The position numbers and the translations under genes are program-made. A model generated the notes under the pieces. That model had not been told where the DNA came from. It was given only the letters and a program-made list of their open reading frames with translations, and ran no database searches. DNA of 64,000 nucleotides from Escherichia phage F13, in the sequence record OP745617; one strand, written 5' to 3'. Below are positions 3,264 through 60,706 of the stretch, one piece after another; the first letter of the stretch is position 1; each line of letters opens with the position of its first letter.

Positions 3264-3553
3264 GATTAAGCCTAGCTCAGATTCAGACATTATATCGCAT
3301 GGAAGACGGCACATCATACATGTTGCGCGGCGACCGCAAGAAGGCTTATGAGAAACGGCCTTCATTGTTTCACGACGTTAACGCGCCATCAATCCCTGTC
3401 TTATTCCGGCTGGGCCTTGTTGACTGGAAAGTGCCAGGAGAGAAAGACCCAACTCGATATTCACCGGTTGTGATGACAAAGAAAGGTCGTGCAGCATTAA
3501 AAGAAATTAAAGAGCATATGGCTGGAGAAAAATACTATGACATCAAATCTTAA
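3260..3553 (+). CDS. hypothetical early protein (97 aa)
   Basis: ATGA overlap; motif GAGAAGACAACAATG also precedes the gene at 3718. Confidence 0.4.
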   Translation: MRLSLAQIQTLYRMEDGTSYMLRGDRKKAYEKRPSLFHDVNAPSIPVLFRLGLVDWKVPGEKDPTRYSPVVMTKKGRAALKEIKEHMAGEKYYDIKS

Positions 3554-3717
3554 GGCCCGTTTGTTATTCATCAAGCCGCATGTGCCATATAAGATTAGTA
3601 AGCGCACCTGGCTTAACATTTACAACCGCAGCGGCGACCGTTGTCTGTACAAGGCGAAGCGACGCAAGAAGGTATATTCTTACACAACATCTATCAAATA
3701 AATAGGAGAAGACAACA

Positions 3718-5528: not shown

Positions 5529-6061
5529 TGGGTAACGATGCAGGATGGGGCAAGCCGCGATACTCAAAACTTGCCCACTACTTTGACGACGGCGAGCAAA
5601 TCAGCTTGTGCGGTAAATTCAACAAAGGCAATACAGAGTTGACCGATGCTCAAGAAATGGAATCAAGTCTGACAATTGGTGATTGCTCTAAGTGCAGAAA
5701 GGCATTATATGAGTTATTGACTCTAAGGGGATTGAAAGCGGCAAAATCAAGGGATGAATGGGTCATCAACGTCTGTGAAGGGAATCCAGAATTGATGGAT
5801 GAATTGCTGAAAACAGATGCCGTTAATGCCATTTTCAAAAGGCATTATAAAACTTGTATGCGTTACAAGATGAATGATGATATTATTTTTATGGTATTAT
5901 CTTATTCAAGGAGCACAATGGACGTCAAAAAGCTTCGACAATATCGCCACAAGGTCATGTGTGAATTGCGCCGTTTAGGAGTTATTGTGGATAATAATGT
6001 CATTAAAACGGAGTTAAAGAAGCGTGATAAAAGGAATGGTGACTGGAAGGTCAGCGGATAA
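5525..6061 (+). CDS. hypothetical protein (178 aa) with possible Cys cluster
   Basis: ATGA overlap; SLCGKF...DCSKCRK spacing suggests metal binding. Confidence 0.5.
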   Translation: MMGNDAGWGKPRYSKLAHYFDDGEQISLCGKFNKGNTELTDAQEMESSLTIGDCSKCRKALYELLTLRGLKAAKSRDEWVINVCEGNPELMDELLKTDAVNAIFKRHYKTCMRYKMNDDIIFMVLSYSRSTMDVKKLRQYRHKVMCELRRLGVIVDNNVIKTELKKRDKRNGDWKVSG

Positions 6062-6319
6062 ATAAACACTGTTTACGTGTTTTGAAGAATGGAATGTGTG
6101 CAATGGGTCGCTTTATGCGGCCTTTTGTCGTTTGGGTCATGTTTTGCTATGGAATAATTATGAGGTTGTGTTTTATTTATTAATTGTGCGGAAATATTTA
6201 GAAATATATATAAACAGGATTGTTAATATTTTAATAGTTTATGGCTATTGGTCCGTGGTGTTTGTTAGATTCTATCTATGGATTGGATTTTCTTGGGTCG
6301 TGAAACGTGGTTTTGAACA

Positions 6320-6690
6320 CATTTGATACGCCTAAAATACGGTTAAAAATTAAGCGTATCATGGCTGCAGGCCGCGCCGTTCCTGGATTCCTCTTTTCCA
6401 AATTGGTACACCCTTACGTCATGATACGTCATGGTTTTTTATCCGTATCAGTGTACAACCCTTGCCGCGCCTGGCTTGTACATTAATCTTACGGATGATA
6501 CGGATAAAACTGAGCATCGTTATATATAGAATTCGAAAAATTAATTAACTCCATTTTAAAAACATTTATATTAATTTTTTTCATATCCTCATACTTATGT
6601 TAATTTATATATTTAACGTATCATCCGTAAGATATAAGTAAAAACAAAGACTTGCGGCAATACGGATGATACGTCATGATACGCTTCAAC
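6320..6690. repeat. iteron-like module: direct and inverted ATCCGTATC / GATACGGAT 9-mers flanking an AT-rich core (copy 1)
   Basis: Repeats read directly (tatccgtatca, ttacggatgatacggat, cgtatcatccgtaag, tacggatgatacgtcatgatacg); AT-rich core 6530-6615; homologous module at 22845-23135. Confidence 0.7.
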
Positions 6691-6874
6691 CAGCCAGCAG
6701 CGGCTAAGTCGTTGATTTGCATAACAAGCGGCAAAAGGGATGGATTTCTTTTATACGTATCAAACAGTACACCACGCACCACGGTCCGTTATCCATTCAG
6801 CAATATGATTTGTGTACGTTTATAGCCATAATGAACATCAATCTGCACTTGAATATAATGTCCATCCATTGTAT

Positions 6875-8095
6875 AATTCACACTATTAATTTGCACTATG
6901 GGATTTTGCACTATGAGTCAAGATTATGTAGCGATGCCTGAAGACTTTGAAGACCCGCGATTCGCAGAGCACAATCAGGCTTTATTCGATGAGTTCATTG
7001 ACCTTGTTATTCAGGGTCATGACATGCGCGCAGCTTTTGCACTAGTATTTGGAATGGAAGTTGCAACGGATAACTACACTGGCCAGCGAATCCTTTGCAC
7101 GCAACGCAATCCATACTACAAGATGCGCTTCAAAAAGCGTATGGAAGAGATGCCACTCAAGGATTTGTGGAGCGTAAAAGGTGCAATTCACAATTTGGTT
7201 AAGCTTGTTCGTGATCCAGAAGTCGCGGCGTCAGCCAAGCTTAATGCTATTCGTGAACTGAATATCATCTACGGCATCACGATGATTGATGAAAACGGCA
7301 ATAGTAAAATGGGCCGTTCCATGGACGATTTCTACAAGGATTTTGGAGAGGCGGCCAAAGAAGGTGAGCAATTCTCCCGCCACTAGCCAATTTGCACTAT
7401 AAAACGGCCCTAGAACACATTTTCTCCAATTCTAGGGCCATCGGTAATACGACGGGGAAGGTTACAAACATAAACGCGTTAGAAAGTGTATTATTATAAG
7501 TCATCTTTTAGTCACCTTACGTAACAATTTACGACCTTCAACCGTCCAATCGAACGACTCCACCAGCAGATTCGCACTATAACCTAAGACGATGCGTCCC
7601 TTCTCGTTATCGACCCGCCAACAAGTCTCGAATAGCATTCGATTTGCACTATTAACTATTGCCGCAACTCGCGTAGGATAAGCGCAATTTGAACTATGGT
7701 CGTAAAGGGATAAGGTGCGACCACTTCCGATGGACAACGTAGCGATGAGAATGAGCGTATTCATAAGCCACCAATTTGCACTATGAAAAGCGACCCCGAA
7801 GGGCCGCCATTCGATTAGATAATCTGGAAGGTATAGGATTTGTTGCCGAACTCAAAGTTCAAGCGCCCAGCTTCCTTAAGCTTCATGCGGAAGCGAATGT
7901 GCTTGCTATCCGGCAAGCCCAGCACGGCGAACGCTACGCGGACCGATTTGAACTCGCCTACACCCTCGACCATAACGCCGTTACGGGTGAGACGCTTTTG
8001 CGCCACTTCCTTATTATCCCAACTTTTTGCAATACCTTCGCTATTCGAACGGCGATGGGAAGGAGTTCCATTTTGCACTACGCAATTTGCACTAT
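6875..8095 (+). repeat. array of about 10 copies of the 12-bp motif (A/G)ATTTGCACTAT, all on the plus strand
   Basis: Copies at 6875, 6888, 6903, 7389, 7569, 7641, 7686, 7773, 8071, 8083 (some with one mismatch). Confidence 0.7.
6898..7386 (+). CDS. hypothetical protein (157-162 aa); speculative small terminase or DNA-binding protein
   Basis: ORF starting inside the first motif copies (alternative ATG at 6913); the terminase idea is only from size and the adjacent repeat array. Confidence 0.4.
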   Translation: MGFCTMSQDYVAMPEDFEDPRFAEHNQALFDEFIDLVIQGHDMRAAFALVFGMEVATDNYTGQRILCTQRNPYYKMRFKKRMEEMPLKDLWSVKGAIHNLVKLVRDPEVAASAKLNAIRELNIIYGITMIDENGNSKMGRSMDDFYKDFGEAAKEGEQFSRH

Positions 8096-8441
8096 CGTTT
8101 AGACCGCTCTTAACGAAGGCTTCATACTCTTCGTCGGTCATCGCGTCGAGTTCTTCCTGGGTCGGCTCGGCCTTTTTAACGACCGCACGCGCCTTATGCG
8201 TTTTTACATCGCTGGACACTTCCTCGCGCGACTTCGCTTCGGGGATGGGCGATTCGTTGGACGGCTCATCGAGCGCGTTTAAGGACTCGATTAACGCGAT
8301 TACGCGAGTCTCGGCGGTACGGCGGTCCGCAAATTTCTTAATCGGCTTCGAACCGGAATTTGCATTATAAAATGCAACGAGGTCGGCGGTCTTAGTTGCG
8401 ATAACGTCGCCGCTAGTCGAGAAACGATTTAAGCTAACCAT
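7815..8441 (-). CDS. hypothetical protein (208 aa)
   Basis: Protein-like composition (acidic stretch EEELDAMTDEEYEAF); the antisense plus-strand ORF looks like a shadow. Confidence 0.45.
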   Translation of the reverse strand: MVSLNRFSTSGDVIATKTADLVAFYNANSGSKPIKKFADRRTAETRVIALIESLNALDEPSNESPIPEAKSREEVSSDVKTHKARAVVKKAEPTQEELDAMTDEEYEAFVKSGLNDSANCVVQNGTPSHRRSNSEGIAKSWDNKEVAQKRLTRNGVMVEGVGEFKSVRVAFAVLGLPDSKHIRFRMKLKEAGRLNFEFGNKSYTFQII

Positions 8442-8521
8442 AATGAACTCCTATTTGTTAGGGCGCTAGGCGCGAAAGAATTTTATTAAAGCGCCGCGCA
8501 CGACGCTCTAAAAATCCTCTC

Positions 8522-8806
8522 TTACGCTTCGACGAGGGAGAAGGTCTCAAATTCTTCTTCGCCCATAACGAGTAAGATGTTACCGATTTCGACCGCTTCG
8601 AAGAAGTATCCGTTAACGTTTACTTCGAAGGCTTCGCGGTCCGATTCCGGTAACGCCGCGTAAAGTTTAAAAGCCTCGGCGACCGTTACCCCACCCGCCT
8701 CGATGGTCTGGTCTACGTTCGCGGCGTAGACTTCGGATAAAATTTGTTTTACGCCGTAGTTCTCGACGATAGCGTTACGGATGGAAGAAACGTTAAGAAT
8801 AGCCAT
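8522..8806 (-). CDS. small protein (94 aa), paralog family member
   Basis: Aligns with the 9744..10034 product (SxIR, VY..NVD..IE, NG[YF].[FY]..EIG); own promoter upstream. Confidence 0.5.
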   Translation of the reverse strand: MAILNVSSIRNAIVENYGVKQILSEVYAANVDQTIEAGGVTVAEAFKLYAALPESDREAFEVNVNGYFFEAVEIGNILLVMGEEEFETFSLVEA

Positions 8807-8874
8807 TTTAAACTCCTAGTTGGGAGAGGCGTTAACGACCTATTCGCTAACTCATCCCGTCCCGATATGAGTAC

Positions 8875-8902
8875 ATTATAATATAGTGTAGAAAAAAGTA
8901 AA
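8875..8902 (-). promoter_or_regulatory. sigma70-like promoter on minus strand (-35 TTTACT, 16-bp spacer, -10 TATAAT)
   Basis: Reverse complement of 8875-8902; inverted copy of the promoter module at 9345-9373. Confidence 0.5.
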
Positions 8903-8946
8903 GCACTTTTTCGATAAAAATGCGATAAATTATTTTATCTTTTTTC

Positions 8947-8974
8947 TTTACTTCTTCGTACACTCGCGTATACT
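8947..8974 (+). promoter_or_regulatory. sigma70-like promoter (-35 TTTACT, 16-bp spacer, -10 TATACT)
   Basis: Diverges from the minus-strand promoter; drives the gene at 9031. Confidence 0.45.
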
Positions 8975-9030
8975 TGTTTATATCGAGACGGGCGATGGCC
9001 CTTCCTTCTACTAGCATCGGGAGCTTTATT

Positions 9031-9333
9031 ATGACTACTTTAATCTCTTCCATCCTTACTTACGACGAAGACCGTTTAACCGTTCGCTCTCTTATCGCCG
9101 CCGTTAACGCCGAACTAGAATCTAGCGCCATTAAGGTCCGCGCGGTTGCCTTCGTCGGTCTTTCCTTCGACGATATCAAGTACGCCGAACGTAGCGCCAT
9201 CCGCTTCGCGAAGACCGACGACGAAGCCGTTACCCTTATCGAGACGGTTACTCCGCGCGGCGAAACGTTAATTATCGTCGAGTATATCGACGTAGAAGGC
9301 GATAAGGCTTATAAATATTTTATCGCAAAATAA
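9031..9333 (+). CDS. small protein (100 aa), probable distant member of the same paralog family
   Basis: ATG with GGGAG RBS; 3' 200 bp of this gene is duplicated in the tandem repeat. Confidence 0.5.
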   Translation: MTTLISSILTYDEDRLTVRSLIAAVNAELESSAIKVRAVAFVGLSFDDIKYAERSAIRFAKTDDEAVTLIETVTPRGETLIIVEYIDVEGDKAYKYFIAK

Positions 9334-9744
9334 CGAAAAAGTGCTTTACTTCTTAGTACACTAAGACTATAATGTTTTATATCGAGAGGGGATGAGGTAG
9401 CGAATAGGTCGCTACCCTCCCGACTAACTAGGAGAATATTACGCGCGGTTGCCTTCGTCGGTCTTTCCTTCGACGATATCAAGTACGCCGAACGTAGCGC
9501 CATCCGCTTCGCGAAGACCGACGACGAAGCCGTTACCCTTATCGAGACGGTTACTCCGCGCGGCGAAACGTTAATTATCGTCGAGTATATCGACGTAGAA
9601 GGCGATAAGGCTTATAAATATTTTATCGCAAAATAACGAAAAAGTGCTTTACTTCTTAGTACACTAAGACTATAATGTTTTATATCGAGAGGGGATGAGG
9701 TAGCGAATAGGTCGCTACCCTCCCGACTAACTAGGAGAATATTA
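9139..9744. repeat. tandem direct duplication, 2 x 303 bp (9139-9441 and 9442-9744)
   Basis: Near-identical units read directly; each carries the gene 3' end, promoter (TTTACT-17-TATAAT at 9345-9373 and 9648-9676), leader hairpin and RBS. Confidence 0.85.
9442..9639 (+). pseudogene. promoter-less 3' fragment of gene 9031..9333 created by the tandem duplication
   Basis: Copy of the C-terminal coding part; at the junction the RBS is followed by ACG rather than ATG. Confidence 0.5.
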
Positions 9745-10034
9745 TGATCACTTTATCCGCTATCCGTGCCGCTCGCGTCGAAACTTCCGAAAACTCTAAC
9801 GTATTTGGCGAAACCTTAGAGAGCGTTTATCTCTCTAACGTTGACGCGATTATCGAGTCTATTTATGAGCCGATCAACTTCCTCGACCTTTACAAGTATC
9901 GCGATGAGGACATCGTGTCCTACCGCGTAACGATTAACGGCTTCGTTTATACGATTACCGAAATCGGCGGCGAATATCTCGCTGTACCGCAACTCGGCGG
10001 CGAAGTAACTTACTTTAAAATCGTAAGCCTTTAA
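9744..10034 (+). CDS. small protein (96 aa), paralog of 8522..8806
   Basis: AGGAG RBS; clear alignment to the 8522..8806 product. Confidence 0.55.
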   Translation: MITLSAIRAARVETSENSNVFGETLESVYLSNVDAIIESIYEPINFLDLYKYRDEDIVSYRVTINGFVYTITEIGGEYLAVPQLGGEVTYFKIVSL

Positions 10035-10045
10035 GGAGAAGAAAA

Positions 10046-10255
10046 ATGATTAATATGAATAACTCTCTTAACGCGCGCGCCCATCGCACCGCCGTCATCG
10101 ATATGTTCCGTGAGCTTAAGGACTTATGCGATAATATGAACGCGATGTTATCCATCGGCGGCTGGGGATACGAAGAAGAAGTTAAATATGCGGTTATGCG
10201 TCGCCGTCGCGATAACGTCCTTGGGCAAATTAAACGCGCCGGATTATTCCTTTAA
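10046..10255 (+). CDS. hypothetical small basic protein (69 aa)
   Basis: ORF with AAGGAG RBS; RRRRD motif. Confidence 0.4.
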   Translation: MINMNNSLNARAHRTAVIDMFRELKDLCDNMNAMLSIGGWGYEEEVKYAVMRRRRDNVLGQIKRAGLFL

Positions 10256-10281
10256 TTATAATCAACCACCGTTACTAATAG

Positions 10282-10306
10282 GCCGCGCTTAGTCGCGGCT
10301 TTTCTT
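10282..10306 (+). terminator. Rho-independent terminator
   Basis: GCCGCG-cttagt-CGCGGC stem-loop followed by TTTTCTT. Confidence 0.6.
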
Positions 10307-10419
10307 CGTCCCTATCTCGGTGCGCTCCTACGCGAAAACTCCTTTATCCTTCCCTTCGTCGTCGCATAATCTTCGTCGATATGCGCCTTAGTTCGCATAA
10401 CAGGTATTACGTTAAATGG

Positions 10420-10960
10420 AGAACATCGCGTAAGTCCTTGTTTTATATAGACACCTATATCGGACCGTTAGGGCGGGTCGCGTAAGTCGTTGTTTTATAA
10501 AGGCGCAAAACTTTCCCTTCGTTCCGAACTAAAACGAGGAATATGCCGACCCTTCGTCCGAAAATAGTACGCATGCGAAATTACATGCATCTAGAATAAT
10601 CCCCACAGATATTATCCTACACGCAATCATTCGCTTTCGAATCATTATGCTTCATATTATTATGCGTCGAATCATTCGCTTTCGAATTGTAACGCTGGAA
10701 ACTGTAACGGCGATTGATTATTGCGTTCGTGTGGTTTTTATGGCATGGGTCTTTTGGTGCGTTTTGCTACTTGATGGAATTTGCGGTACACTAATCAAAA
10801 TACGACACATTTAGTCTACTAACTTTTCAAAGAAAAAGTCCTGGACAGTACCGTACTATTTTGTACCCACAGGAAATTTGCAGTACACTCCTGCGCGCGG
10901 CAGGCAAAATAAAGGGCCGCACCAAGCGACCCACGATTCACGATTCACGGTTAAAGCAAC
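10420..10960. repeat. noncoding region with several short direct repeats
   Basis: cgcgtaagtc(c/g)ttgttttata x2 (10425-10500), aatcattcgctttcgaat x2 (10628-10700), ggaa(a)tttgc(g/a)gtacact x2 (10774, 10872), cacgattcacgattcacgg (10934). Confidence 0.6.
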
Positions 10961-21747: not shown

Positions 21748-22668
21748 ATGACGATACCAATCAACACATTCCCTCTATCTGGACAAACTCCAGTCTTGCC
21801 TGCGGTGTATGCTAATGGCTTGGCAATTGTCTCAGAATTCACTTCTGATAAAAACTTGATTGTTCCACTGAGCCCGCCGCTTTCATCAGGGTATAACTCA
21901 GTAGGCCAGTTCTTTATGATTGGCAATGATGGCGATTCGACCAGCAAGCCTAATCTGACATTGTCTGTACCTAAGATGAACATCACCGACGTTCAAACTG
22001 GCTTGACTGCATCAACAATCACCATTGCTTTTGGAGAAGCAGTGATTATAGGAATGGAGTCTGGAGGGTCCAAGAATGCTGTCGCCGTTAAGGTAGTCAA
22101 ATCCAGCGACAACCAATACACTTTACCAGCTGCGACGGCTTCCGTTCTCGGCGGCGTCAAAATAGGAAGCGGAATAAGCGTCGCAGGTGACGGTACAATT
22201 AGCGTAACTCAATACTCATTGCCGATTGCGTCAGCATCTACTTTAGGCGGCGTAAAGGTCGGTACAACTCTATCAATTGATGGTTCCGGTGTGCTTAACG
22301 CAGCAGCAAGCACCGTCCAGAATGCCACGAACAGTGTTAGCAATCCTCCAACCACTTTGGTTAATCTGGCAACCTTAAACCTTCCTGCAGGAAAGTGGCT
22401 TGTGACGGCAAGCCAATTGACCGTTGCAACTGCAGGCATTCAAGCGAATACCGGAATCACTGTAAAATTATCAACAAGCAATTCAGATATTACGGATGAT
22501 GCATTTACCATGTCAGCGGGTATTCGGGCTTCAGGACGTTTTGGCGGTAACGTCCCAACAAAAATGATTACTCTTGCCGCGCCTGGTAATGTGTATCTAA
22601 ACTATCAGTGCACCGATGCGTTAACATCTACCGTTTACGGACAGATCACCGCAATTAAGCTGAACTAA
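21748..22668 (+). CDS. structural protein with internal tandem repeats (fiber or decoration-like)
   Basis: Repeats TLPAATASVLGGVKIGSGISVAGDGTISV / SLPIASASTLGGVKVGTTLSIDGSGVLNA; start at internal ATG 21748. Confidence 0.5.
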   Translation: MTIPINTFPLSGQTPVLPAVYANGLAIVSEFTSDKNLIVPLSPPLSSGYNSVGQFFMIGNDGDSTSKPNLTLSVPKMNITDVQTGLTASTITIAFGEAVIIGMESGGSKNAVAVKVVKSSDNQYTLPAATASVLGGVKIGSGISVAGDGTISVTQYSLPIASASTLGGVKVGTTLSIDGSGVLNAAASTVQNATNSVSNPPTTLVNLATLNLPAGKWLVTASQLTVATAGIQANTGITVKLSTSNSDITDDAFTMSAGIRASGRFGGNVPTKMITLAAPGNVYLNYQCTDALTSTVYGQITAIKLN

Positions 22669-22816: not shown

Positions 22817-22844
22817 ATTCATCGGCAAAGGATTGCCGCGAGTT

Positions 22845-23135
22845 TTATACGTATAATGACGTATCATCCGTATCAAGTAAGTTGTTGTTTTCAAAAGAAT
22901 CTTACGGATGATACGGATGATACGCGTTGCCGCCGTACTATATAGGAATTCAAATAAATTAATTTAAAATTATATATCTAATTTAATTTTATTTTTTTAT
23001 AAACTCTTATATATATGAAAAGTATCCGTATCATCCGTATCATCCGTAGCACACCAGTGATAGCGCGGCTTATACACCGATACGGATAAAAATACGCCTC
23101 ATTTTATCCGTATCATCCGTATCACACTAATAAAG
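22845..23135. repeat. iteron-like module (copy 2): GATACGGAT / ATCCGTATC 9-mer arrays flanking an AT-rich core
   Basis: ttacggatgatacggatgatacg (22901-22923), gtatccgtatcatccgtatcatccgta (23021-23047), tatccgtatcatccgtatc (23105-23123); shares the 21-mer aatcttacggatgatacggat with copy 1. Confidence 0.7.
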
Positions 23136-23239
23136 GCGCGGCTATATCGGTTGTTATACATATTCAAACCATAATTATTGTTTGCCTAAGTTTTTTTCAT
23201 TAGATATAATACACAATACTTATTTGAGGGTGGATGCGA

Positions 23240-24655
23240 ATGCAAACGGCACGCGAAATTGACAAAAATGGATTCTTGACGATTATGGGTTGTCCGATTT
23301 CGTCATTTGGCATTTTTGATTATTCTGCTGGTCAAGTTGGTCTTGATGGTGATCCGAATCGCATCGTAAAAGTCTATCGCCCTGAGTCAGCGGTGAAAGA
23401 CCCCGAAGCGATAGATTCATTCAAAAATATCCCTTTCATCGACAATCACGAAATGCTTTCTGGATTTGAAGGTGATGAGGATAACACAGCACCCGAAGAG
23501 TATGGCGTTGATGGCGTTCTGACTGGCAATGTTTATTATGACAAGCCATGGATGCGCGGCGACCTTAAAGTGTTTAGCCGTCGTCTGAAGAAGGCCATTG
23601 ATTCTGGAAAGGTTGACTTGTCTTTGGGCTATGACTGTGAATTCATCATACAGTCTGGAGAGTTTGACGGGCAGCCGTATGAAGTGGTGCAGACAACTCT
23701 TCGCGGCAACCACATTGCTCTCGTGGACGTTGGTCGAGTACCAGGTGCACGGGTGCTGGATGGTCGTTGCTTTGACCATCTTTGTTTGACGACTGTAACA
23801 CCATCCAACGAGGATTTAGACATGCCAAAACCGTTAAAAGGTAAAGCGCGTGATAATGCTGTTGAACAGCTGAAATCACTGATCCCTGCGCTCGAACAAT
23901 TTCTGAACGAAGAGAGTACTGAAGCTGCTCATCAGGACGAAGTTGAAGTGAAAGCAGAAGAGAAGGACTCAACCGAAAATCGTGAAGAAGTAATGGTTGA
24001 TCCAGAAGTCAAGGCAGAAGCAGAAGAAACCCCAGAAGGTGAAGAGAAGTTTGAAGTTGAAACTGAATCTCACGCTGGCGGCGAACTTCCGCAATTGATC
24101 AGCCAAATCGAAGCACTTATTGCAAAACTGAAAGGTGGCGCGGTAGGTGATGAAGAAGAAGTTGAAGCCGAAGTCAAAGACGAAGAAGAAGTTGAAGTCA
24201 AGGCTGAAGATGTATCACCTTGCGACAAAGCTGAAGATGTGGTTAGCGGCCTGCAAAACAGCAACGTAAAGGGGGCTTCGGTCGAAAAAGATGACAAACC
24301 GACAAAAGCGGCGAAAGCGTCGCCAGGTCCAGCAAAAGGGGAACACTCAATGGCATCTGATTCAGCAGTTGCTGCTTTCTACGCTGATTCTGCTCGTAAG
24401 AATAGCCTCTACCAGCGCCTGTCTAAAGTTGTTGGTGCCTTTGATCATGCAACTATGGACTCCAAGTCCGTAGCGAAATATGGCGCTAAAAAGTTAGGCT
24501 TGAAGTGCGTTGATGGTGCTGAGTTTGACGTGGTGGATAATTATCTGCGCGGCGTTGAGCACGGTCAGAAACAGCGTGTAGTCGCAAAACAAAAGGCCGC
24601 TGCGGATTCTGCAGCAACTGACGAAGCATTTGAAGCTTGGTTGAAAGGGGAATAA
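23240..24655 (+). CDS. scaffolding / prohead protease-like protein with acidic region
   Basis: Position between head morphogenesis and capsid; long Glu-rich stretch (EVEVKAEEKD...EEEVEAEVKDEEEVEVKAED). Confidence 0.5.
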   Translation: MQTAREIDKNGFLTIMGCPISSFGIFDYSAGQVGLDGDPNRIVKVYRPESAVKDPEAIDSFKNIPFIDNHEMLSGFEGDEDNTAPEEYGVDGVLTGNVYYDKPWMRGDLKVFSRRLKKAIDSGKVDLSLGYDCEFIIQSGEFDGQPYEVVQTTLRGNHIALVDVGRVPGARVLDGRCFDHLCLTTVTPSNEDLDMPKPLKGKARDNAVEQLKSLIPALEQFLNEESTEAAHQDEVEVKAEEKDSTENREEVMVDPEVKAEAEETPEGEEKFEVETESHAGGELPQLISQIEALIAKLKGGAVGDEEEVEAEVKDEEEVEVKAEDVSPCDKAEDVVSGLQNSNVKGASVEKDDKPTKAAKASPGPAKGEHSMASDSAVAAFYADSARKNSLYQRLSKVVGAFDHATMDSKSVAKYGAKKLGLKCVDGAEFDVVDNYLRGVEHGQKQRVVAKQKAAADSAATDEAFEAWLKGE

Positions 24656-59860: not shown

Positions 59861-60706
59861 TTATTCCGCTTGATCACCGTCTTCGGCATTGTCGTTGGAT
59901 TCAACATCGACAAACTCGATGTGGCCCATCTCTTCCAGCTTGCTCAGGTAGGAGCGAACGGAAGCGCCAAACAGTTGATCTTTAACTTTTTCGCCCAGCT
60001 CATCGATAGACTGCGCCACGCCAACTTCGCCTTCTTTGATCGCCGCCAGAACGCGTCCACGGGTGGAATGCTCTTGCGGCTGGCTCAGGCCATTGCCGGT
60101 GTAGATGAAGTGAGTGGCTTTTGCACGACGCTGACCGTTTGCCTTTTTAGCAGCCTTGCGCTCTGCGATGGCTTTGCGACGTTCTTCAGCTTCTTTCTTA
60201 CGCTGTTCTTTCTGCTGTTCTGCAGCTTCTTTAGCCGCAATCTTAGCAGCTTCACGCTCTGCCTTGCGTTTCGCTTTAGCTTCTTCTTTGGCCTTCTCTT
60301 TTTCGGCCTTCGCTGCAGCACGGGCTTGATCACGCTCTGCTTTCTTGGCCGCAGCCTGCTCAGCTTTCAGGCGCTTGGCTTCTTCTTTAGCCTTTGCCTT
60401 TTCGATTTCTTTTGCTGCTTTAGCGGCTTCACGCTCTGCTTTCTTAGCAGCAGCCTTTTCTGCACGCTCTTTAGCTTTCTTAGCTGCTTCTTCAGCACGC
60501 TTCTGCGCCTTCTCATCAGCAGCCTGCTTGCGTTTCAGCGCAGCTTCTTCACGCTTGGCTTGTTTTTCCTGCTCACGCTTCTGGCGCTTCTCTTCGGCTT
60601 CTTTCTTTTTAGCCAGGCGTTTTTCTTCAGCCACGCGACGACGTTCTGCTGCGGCTGCTTGTTTTTCTTCTTTAGATAATACTTTGATTGCTTCGGCCAT
60701 ATTCAC
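59861..60706 (-). CDS. Lys/Ala/Glu-rich low-complexity protein with C-terminal globular domain
   Basis: 281 aa; about 190 aa of KEA-rich helix then about 80 aa of ordinary sequence; opposite-strand ORF is a shadow. Confidence 0.5.
   Translation of the reverse strand: MNMAEAIKVLSKEEKQAAAAERRRVAEEKRLAKKKEAEEKRQKREQEKQAKREEAALKRKQAADEKAQKRAEEAAKKAKERAEKAAAKKAEREAAKAAKEIEKAKAKEEAKRLKAEQAAAKKAERDQARAAAKAEKEKAKEEAKAKRKAEREAAKIAAKEAAEQQKEQRKKEAEERRKAIAERKAAKKANGQRRAKATHFIYTGNGLSQPQEHSTRGRVLAAIKEGEVGVAQSIDELGEKVKDQLFGASVRSYLSKLEEMGHIEFVDVESNDNAEDGDQAE

Follow-up and report, generated by a model that had tools for sequence, protein, structure and literature searches.

The centre of module 1, a repeat-flanked AT-rich element of Escherichia phage F13, corresponds to the left physical end of virion DNA in related phages, and the cut site lies 360 bp upstream of the start of the gene for the small terminase (TerS); an uncut, colinear paralogue (module 2) stands in the same window (the whole stretch of OP745617 analysed, 64,000 nucleotides). 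An initial annotation that offered a choice between a replication origin and an activator-dependent promoter missed this end and its nearness to TerS. Since the left end falls in the core at this distance from TerS, a role in terminus formation and packaging is the best-supported one for copy 1, and left-end formation in the module 1 core beside TerS, in three genera, is the only function tied directly to sequence. The fuller reading, in which a phage protein, probably TerS, binds module 1 as the recognition site for terminus formation and packaging and module 2 is its uncut paralogue, is put forward tentatively. For the pair as a whole, terminus, origin and regulatory readings are all in play.

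Phage and locus

The window is from a Wifcevirus (myovirus of E. coli/Shigella; distant kin of the Pseudomonas Pbunavirus) and has ~99.9% identity with vB_EcoM_SP13 (SP13); region 6000–7000: 99.9% identity to SP13, 90–97% to about 27 further records. Features of module 1 and its surroundings are as follows (window coordinates; strand given where there is one):

6105..6133, + strand: terminator-like hairpin with T-run, at the end of the block of + strand genes upstream.
6322..6363: outer-left site pair TGATACGCCTAA and TTAAGCGTATCA, inverted, 14 bp apart.
6415..6434, + strand: tandem TACGTCATGA, two copies with a 10-bp period, including a TGATACG site.
6437..6509: left-arm unit, 14-bp perfect inverted repeat TTTTATCCGTATCA and TGATACGGATAAAA around the GC island TTGCCGCGCC.
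6486..6502, + strand: inner-left arm ATCTTACGGATGATACG, kept in both Wifcevirus subgroups and also present in module 2.
6510..6616: AT-rich core, 85–87.5% A+T; of all 100-bp segments of the window, only the module 2 core is less stable.
6552..6553: physical end of the genome on the left and, with it, left boundary of the direct terminal repeat (...AATTAACTCC / ATTTTAAAAAC..., the slash marking the cut).
6553..10754: direct terminal repeat according to the SP13 and Mansfield records; in WFC it ends at 10835.
6616..6684: right-arm unit ACGTATCATCCGTA ... TACGGATGATACGT, a 14-bp perfect inverted repeat with a 31-bp spacer, then CATGATACG; includes CGTATCATCCGTAAGAT.
6749..6764: outer-right site TTTTATACGTATCAAA.
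6832..6877, + strand: two overlapping sigma-70-like promoters before TerS, 10/12 matches each; the homologue in phage 14-1 has a mapped start (P041).
6913..7386, + strand: TerS gene, 157 aa, homologue of E217 TerS (PDB 7UXE, E 7e-34).
6371, 6464, 6654, 6700 and 6728, with 22835, 22929, 23065 and 23138 at module 2: GC islands of the window that contain GCGGC.

The hairpin at 6105..6133 ends the upstream gene block, so that module 1 is insulated on its left side. The PDB entry matched by TerS is the solved E217 structure, with 10 chains; the gene of the large terminase (TerL) lies 9 kb from the TerS gene.

Small ORFs annotated across 6621–6835, over the right arm of module 1, differ by record (SP13_001 on the minus strand, Mansfield_001 on the plus strand, none in WFC) and are probably not genes. 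The left flank of the module (6100–6420) is G+T-rich; the right flank, which is the TerS 5' leader (6690–6900), is C+A-rich and G-poor. This contrast is stronger in 14-1 and MyoSmar (14-1: G+T 0.65 on the left vs 0.32 on the right), and we read the leader as rut-like in composition.

Left genome end and direct terminal repeat

The GenBank records of Mansfield, WFC and SP13, independent of one another, share the start ATTTTAAAA..., which is window position 6553 in the middle of the module 1 core; this core is therefore taken as the left end of virion DNA. These termini are the depositors' determinations (Mansfield by PhageTerm), as given in the records. The Mansfield record was opened at a PhageTerm-predicted terminal repeat of 3,673 bp; self-identical repeats are present at both record ends of WFC (3,784 bp) and SP13 (3,899 bp), and terminal repeats of about 3.7 kb were reported for WFC and WFH. 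The terminal repeat itself is already known; its left boundary in these related records (3.7–3.9 kb) is the module 1 core. The pentamer ACTCC stands exactly at the cut and is specific to module 1, falling in a gap when this is aligned with module 2, in both Wifcevirus subgroups.

At the right boundary of the terminal repeat no module-like sequence was found, nor any homology to module 1 beyond a terminator-like 23-mer. This region (10560–10900) has repeats of its own, namely a AATCATTCGCTTTCG-like 15-mer array at 10625–10687. A GTACACTAATCA element is located ~30–45 nt outside the boundary (10754/10755 by SP13 and Mansfield; 10835 by WFC) and at the same offset in phage Kyle (compared over 3480–3660); it is a candidate for an early promoter or for a signal of the right end.

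Repeats and AT-rich core of module 1

The 9-bp repeats described in the initial annotation were confirmed: the 64 kb contain 9 perfect matches to ATCCGTATC, against an expectation of 0.39 (9 reached in 0 of 100 shuffles), and every one of them falls in one of two clusters, 6441–6505 and 22866–23123. The unit is better described as the heptamer TGATACG, the core of the 9-mer, often extended to TGATACGGAT and partly arranged in 9-bp tandems (TACGGATGA TACGGATGA TACG); counts: 9 in module 1 (6322–6764), 8 in module 2 (22856–23125), 5 in the other 63 kb. The statement that 9-mers flank the core of copy 1 holds for the wider motif TGATACG/TACGGAT, which is found on both sides, and fails for the exact 9-mers (6441, + strand; 6497, − strand), both of which lie to the left. 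The span first assigned to the module, 6320–6690, is too short: motif sites extend over 6322–6764 and outer inverted repeats over 6241–6796.

The AT-rich core is real (6537–6616, 87.5% A+T; 6521–6620, 85%) and lies between two perfect inverted arms of 17 bp with 114 bp between them: ATCTTACGGATGATACG (6486–6502) and CGTATCATCCGTAAGAT (6617–6633). The cores of the two modules are the most AT-rich and least stable 60–100 bp segments in the window, exceeding the mean by ~4.6 sd; the modules themselves are its strongest short-repeat clusters, and the only non-coding ones among the 64 kb.

Single-stranded, the left-arm unit 6437..6509 would form a strong hairpin (z −6.8); over the four main arm units of both modules the hairpin z ranges between −3.6 and −6.8, and the short outer-left pair has −2.8. 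Hairpins were rejected as the conserved feature: they are strong in Wifcevirus, but by eye the arms of Kyle and 14-1 are short or direct repeats, so that arrays of binding sites are the putative common denominator.

The GCGGC islands are mirrored about the core, those to its left always reading TGCCGC (18 cases) and those to its right GCGGCA (24 cases), over 8 modules (both of the window and those of Kyle, 14-1, MyoSmar and L024). As a second cross-genus motif GCGGCA was discarded; it is among the commonest hexamers genome-wide, is unpolarised there and is no denser in the modules, and the mirrored orientation is therefore not counted as evidence. The 14-mer CTTGCCGCGCCTGG of the module 1 left arm (6462–6475) recurs at 22575–22588, inside the head-fibre gene and ~280 bp upstream of module 2. 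No IHF consensus was found in either core (one site at 6717, outside the core; 9 across the window), and no Rfam covariance model gave a match at E of 1 or better within 6000–7000.

Module 2

The homologous copy already noted proved to be a true colinear paralogue of module 1, about 16.4 kb away at 22856–23125; its features and surroundings are:

22823..22846, + strand: terminator-like hairpin upstream of module 2.
22856..22926: left arm CGTATCATCCGTATCA ... TGATACGGATGATACG, a 16-bp perfect inverted repeat, with the 9-bp tandem TACGGATGA.
22927..23022: AT-rich core; 22946–23025 is 91% A+T, and this is the least stable 100-bp segment of the window.
23023..23125: right arm with three and two tandem 9-bp ATCCGTATC units, inverted GATACGGAT and GCGCGGC islands.
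23182..23210, + strand: sigma-70-like promoter TTGCCT-17-TATAAT before the DUF2213 gene; the 14-1 homologue has a mapped start (P014).
23234–24655: DUF2213 gene, annotated as head maturation protease.

The inner inverted arms are 22 bp each and 102 bp apart; over 22936–23035 the core is 86% A+T. No genome end falls there in any record examined. In five Wifcevirus genomes 96–98% of the module 2 columns are invariant, spacers and core included; neighbours in the same five genomes: head-fibre coding sequence 81%, terminator just upstream 69%. The module was found in 28/28 Wifcevirus records (identity at least 95.6%) and is annotated in none; module 1 is looser than module 2 across the genus.

Comparison across subgroups and genera

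In the ECML-117/FEC19/Mansfield subgroup the sequence to the left of about 6487 is unrelated, yet TACG-type sites are present there again; the inner arms and the cut-site sequence TTAACTCC/ATTTT are kept. TerS homologues at 32–43% identity were found in Pantoea phage Kyle, Serratia phage MyoSmar, Pbunaviruses and Xanthomonas phage XcP1. Kyle has an exact terminal repeat of 3,603 bp, the left boundary of which (...AAATTC/ACTTAAAAAAAA) is in an AT core 356 nt upstream of TerS; in MyoSmar the PhageTerm boundary is in an AT-rich stretch 387 nt upstream of the TerS homologue. A second colinear module occupies the module 2 position, across genera a large intergenic gap upstream of the DUF2213 gene, in Kyle, in Pbunavirus (PS44, 14-1) and in a MyoSmar-like contig; in Kyle it is nearly identical to module 1 around the cut position.

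The heptamers of the other genera are: Kyle – GGTTATT (7+6 in the modules vs 0 in 26 kb); 14-1 – GGTAATT (4+4 vs 1 in 23 kb); MyoSmar group – ACTTTTC/CTTTTCG, enriched more weakly. Each genus has its own heptamer in both modules, and no heptamer is common to two genera. The two modules have been gained, kept and changed together, the pattern left when cis sites co-evolve with a single trans-acting protein. XcP1, a more distant relative, has neither module, though TerS and VapE helicase homologues are present. As a discriminator between these two candidates for the binding protein it was set aside as uninformative, because it has both proteins and neither module.

No similarity was found in plasmids or E. 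coli chromosomes, searched in case the element had been borrowed from a plasmid origin or a prophage, and a distant search of the phage collection returned Wifcevirus only. These comparisons bear on the proposal that the pair is a palindromic repeat of selfish or neutral kind, for instance a recombination scar or a MITE-like insertion, that does nothing for the phage. In its favour are the large imperfect palindromes with hairpin-forming arms and their presence in two copies; non-syntenic copies or copies on other replicons, the mark of a mobile element, were not found. The same two positions are occupied in four genera with fully diverged sequence and copies that change in step, no copies were found in plasmids or E. 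coli genomes, and module 2, present in every Wifcevirus record, is more invariant (96–98%) than the adjacent coding sequence (81%). The proposal is very improbable and close to refuted.

Proposed role in terminus formation and packaging

Repeats on either side of the cut are the design of SPP1 and P1 pac and of lambda cosB, and module 1 is therefore read as a packaging site. As expected of a terminase site, it contains a physical virion end (three record starts, self-identical repeats) and is near the TerS gene (360 bp here; 356 nt in Kyle, 387 nt in MyoSmar); it is not unique in the genome, the colinear paralogue being at 22856–23125.

The following course is proposed. A sequence-specific protein encoded by the phage, most likely the ring-shaped TerS (decameric in E217), would bind the arrays of both arms and bend or wrap the easily melted core; this would present one position (AACTCC/ATTTT) to the nuclease of the large terminase, and cutting or nicking there may start packaging and/or duplication of the terminal repeat on the concatemer. 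The 9-bp tandem would fit DNA wrapped on a decameric ring, a subunit being met roughly every 9 bp. Module 2 would be bound by the same protein and, since in Wifcevirus it has no ACTCC at the cut position and is not an end, would have an auxiliary role: it may pair with module 1, control the operon of head genes next to it, or take part in replication.

Several facts stand against the packaging reading. Pac sites are normally unique; this genome has two copies, the second under no less constraint than the first, and module 2 of Kyle keeps nearly identical sequence at the cut position. Pbunaviruses, reported as headful, circularly permuted packagers without a pac peak, keep both modules. According to a review, E217 TerS shows no appreciable DNA binding in vitro, and XcP1 has a TerS homologue with no module.

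Replication origin as an alternative reading

The anatomy pointed out at first is confirmed: dense repeats in both orientations, an AT core and a second copy are present, but a unit of 7–9 bp is not of the usual iteron length and no skew signal accompanies it. In the corresponding reading the modules are two replication origins, or an origin and a second cis site like ori and crr of P4. A phage initiator would recognise the TGATACG arrays as its iterons; the most plausible candidate is the origin-binding part of a VapE-type SF3 primase-helicase. Two rings of this helicase, placed head-to-head on the inverted arms, would open the AT core. The end would then sit in the module 1 core because rightward synthesis duplicates the repeat and terminase resolves it there. 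This is the main rival of the packaging reading, possible if on the doubtful side.

Inverted site arrays surround the two least stable 100-bp segments of the window, as an AT-rich unwinding element requires, and the modules being its only non-coding short-repeat clusters, any iteron-type origin in the window would have to be one of the two. That origins should come as a pair is natural, and the element is mirror-symmetric throughout (GCGGC islands of all 8 modules included). In MyoSmar and 14-1 the gene just upstream of module 1 encodes a VapE-like (PF05272) helicase, and both modules are kept in headful-packaging Pbunaviruses. In 14-1 a transcript starts in the module 1 core; T4 and T7 origins are transcription-primed. 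Against this, nothing computed marks replication, and the unit of 7–9 bp in both orientations differs from the usual directly repeated iterons of 17–22 bp. The helicase gene is not adjacent in Wifcevirus (where it is outside the window) or in Kyle, whereas TerS is always adjacent; XcP1 has a VapE homologue and no module, and an origin alone does not explain a precise DNA end conserved in three genera.

Two other candidate origin signals were rejected. The GC and AT skew profile follows gene orientation only, and a third repeat cluster at 60.1–60.6 kb is coding sequence of a low-complexity protein rich in K, E and A. That protein (281 aa; 59861–60706, − strand) gives the strongest AT skew of the window (−0.39); a PS44 gene at about the same position is labelled 'IgA FC receptor precursor'.

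A combination of the origin and terminus readings was also considered: across Pbunavirus-like myoviruses the two modules would form one two-site system, in which a single phage protein bridges modules 14–18 kb apart, so that the first cut by terminase is coupled to the firing of an origin and to the duplication of the terminal repeat. Bridging would be by stacked TerS rings or by P4-like ori–crr looping through the SF3 helicase. Such a system is unlikely; if true, it would be a combined origin and terminus element undescribed for any direct-terminal-repeat phage.

Transcription

For the activator-dependent promoter of the initial annotation, Pbunavirus 14-1 offers partial support: its published ONT-cappable-seq tables place a start, P040 (59399, + strand), at the right edge of the module 1 core, from where it reads into TerS, and report no start in the core of module 2. 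The same tables list P041 (59807) and P014 (13257), which are the promoters downstream of the modules. In the window, sigma-70-like matches within the module 1 core reach only 9/12, no more than chance; the better sigma-70-like promoters are 60–90 bp beyond the outermost right-hand sites.

From these data the modules might be regarded as transcription-control arrays, at which a phage regulator activates, represses or insulates the sigma-70-like promoters that drive TerS and the operon of head protease and scaffold-capsid, the AT core serving as an UP-like or bent element. Each module has a terminator on one side and a sigma-70-like promoter on the other, late morphogenesis genes lie downstream of both, and the homologous promoters of 14-1 have mapped starts (P041 and P014), with P040 in the module 1 core itself. 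The JG024 paper (PMC3008698) describes 'AT-rich boxes and conserved intergenic motifs' of unclear function in PB1-like phages and suggests that they might be recognition sequences of a phage sigma factor; these boxes probably are the Pbunavirus versions of the modules. In the text consulted no mention was found of their pairing, of co-variation by genus or of a coincidence with the end of the terminal repeat in sister genera. Most sites and the core are 150–440 bp upstream of the mapped or predicted promoters, at a distance that varies by genus; other late operons (TerL, portal, tail) have no module, the module 2 core of 14-1 has no reported start, and the DNA end within the core is left unexplained. 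Control of transcription as the function of the pair is accordingly held to be quite unlikely.

Relation to known systems

In P1 pac hexamer repeats stand on both sides of the cut, and lambda cosB has repeats likewise; in SPP1 pac (pacL-pacC-pacR) repeats flank the terminase cut. Module 1 resembles SPP1 and P1 pac in a cut between two sets of short repeats, in bendable AT-rich DNA and in a position at or near the TerS gene. It differs from them in that theirs are unique and serve headful packaging; here the cut is the exact boundary of a direct terminal repeat of 3.7–3.9 kb, a second, uncut copy is located 16 kb away, and binding of TerS is putative.

The concatemer junction of T7 and T3 contains pacB, the SRL and SRR arrays beside the terminal repeat, and the replication promoters phiOL and phiOR followed by AT-rich DNA; end formation at this junction is coupled to local DNA synthesis. 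Direct terminal repeats, with short-repeat arrays and origin-like AT-rich DNA at the repeat boundary, are shared with the present phages. In T7, in contrast, the repeat is 160 bp, a phage RNA polymerase (absent here) is needed, the motifs are unrelated and the junction has no internal paralogue.

P4 carries both ori and crr, several kb apart, with the same short repeat recognised by the SF3 primase-helicase alpha. Paired cis elements are common to both cases, and the Wifcevirus lineage encodes a VapE-type SF3 helicase, the binding of which to the modules is hypothetical; unlike module 1, ori and crr of P4 are not genome ends (P4 has a cos site instead). For a pair of terminase-recognition sequences the 'twin-ring pac synapsis' of T4 is a precedent: homologous TerS-binding sequences in genes 16 and 19, separated by a few kb, were proposed to be paired by TerS rings; these sites, however, are within genes, with no AT core and no exact end, and the model is debated. 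In the literature searched, no description was found of a palindromic module at the repeat boundary, of an uncut sister or of co-variation across four genera.

Exact end recognition, cutting and repeat duplication are poorly understood in long direct-terminal-repeat phages outside T7/T3. The present element combines a precisely mapped end, a genus-specific site array and a natural control, the uncut sister; as every genome supplies a cut and an uncut copy of one element, the system is unusually testable. Pbunavirus, which shares the design, is among the groups most used in Pseudomonas phage therapy; its packaging mode is disputed, and its genomes are now rebuilt synthetically. For phage engineering it is directly relevant which cis elements have to be left intact or may be exchanged from one genus to another. 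If the modules are origins, they would be the first mapped for the whole lineage.

Other features of the terminal repeat

A perfect 303-bp tandem duplication (9139–9744; 2.0 copies, 100% match) is found within the terminal repeat and is absent from the near-identical SP13; it could be a true variant or an assembly artefact. Chi sites are not enriched in the window, and its terminal repeat has one CCACCAGC site only (7560). In Kyle nine copies of CCACCAGC (E. coli Chi, minus strand) are found at 255–1972, within the first 2 kb, and none in the opposite orientation; their orientation is the one active for RecBCD entering at the left end.
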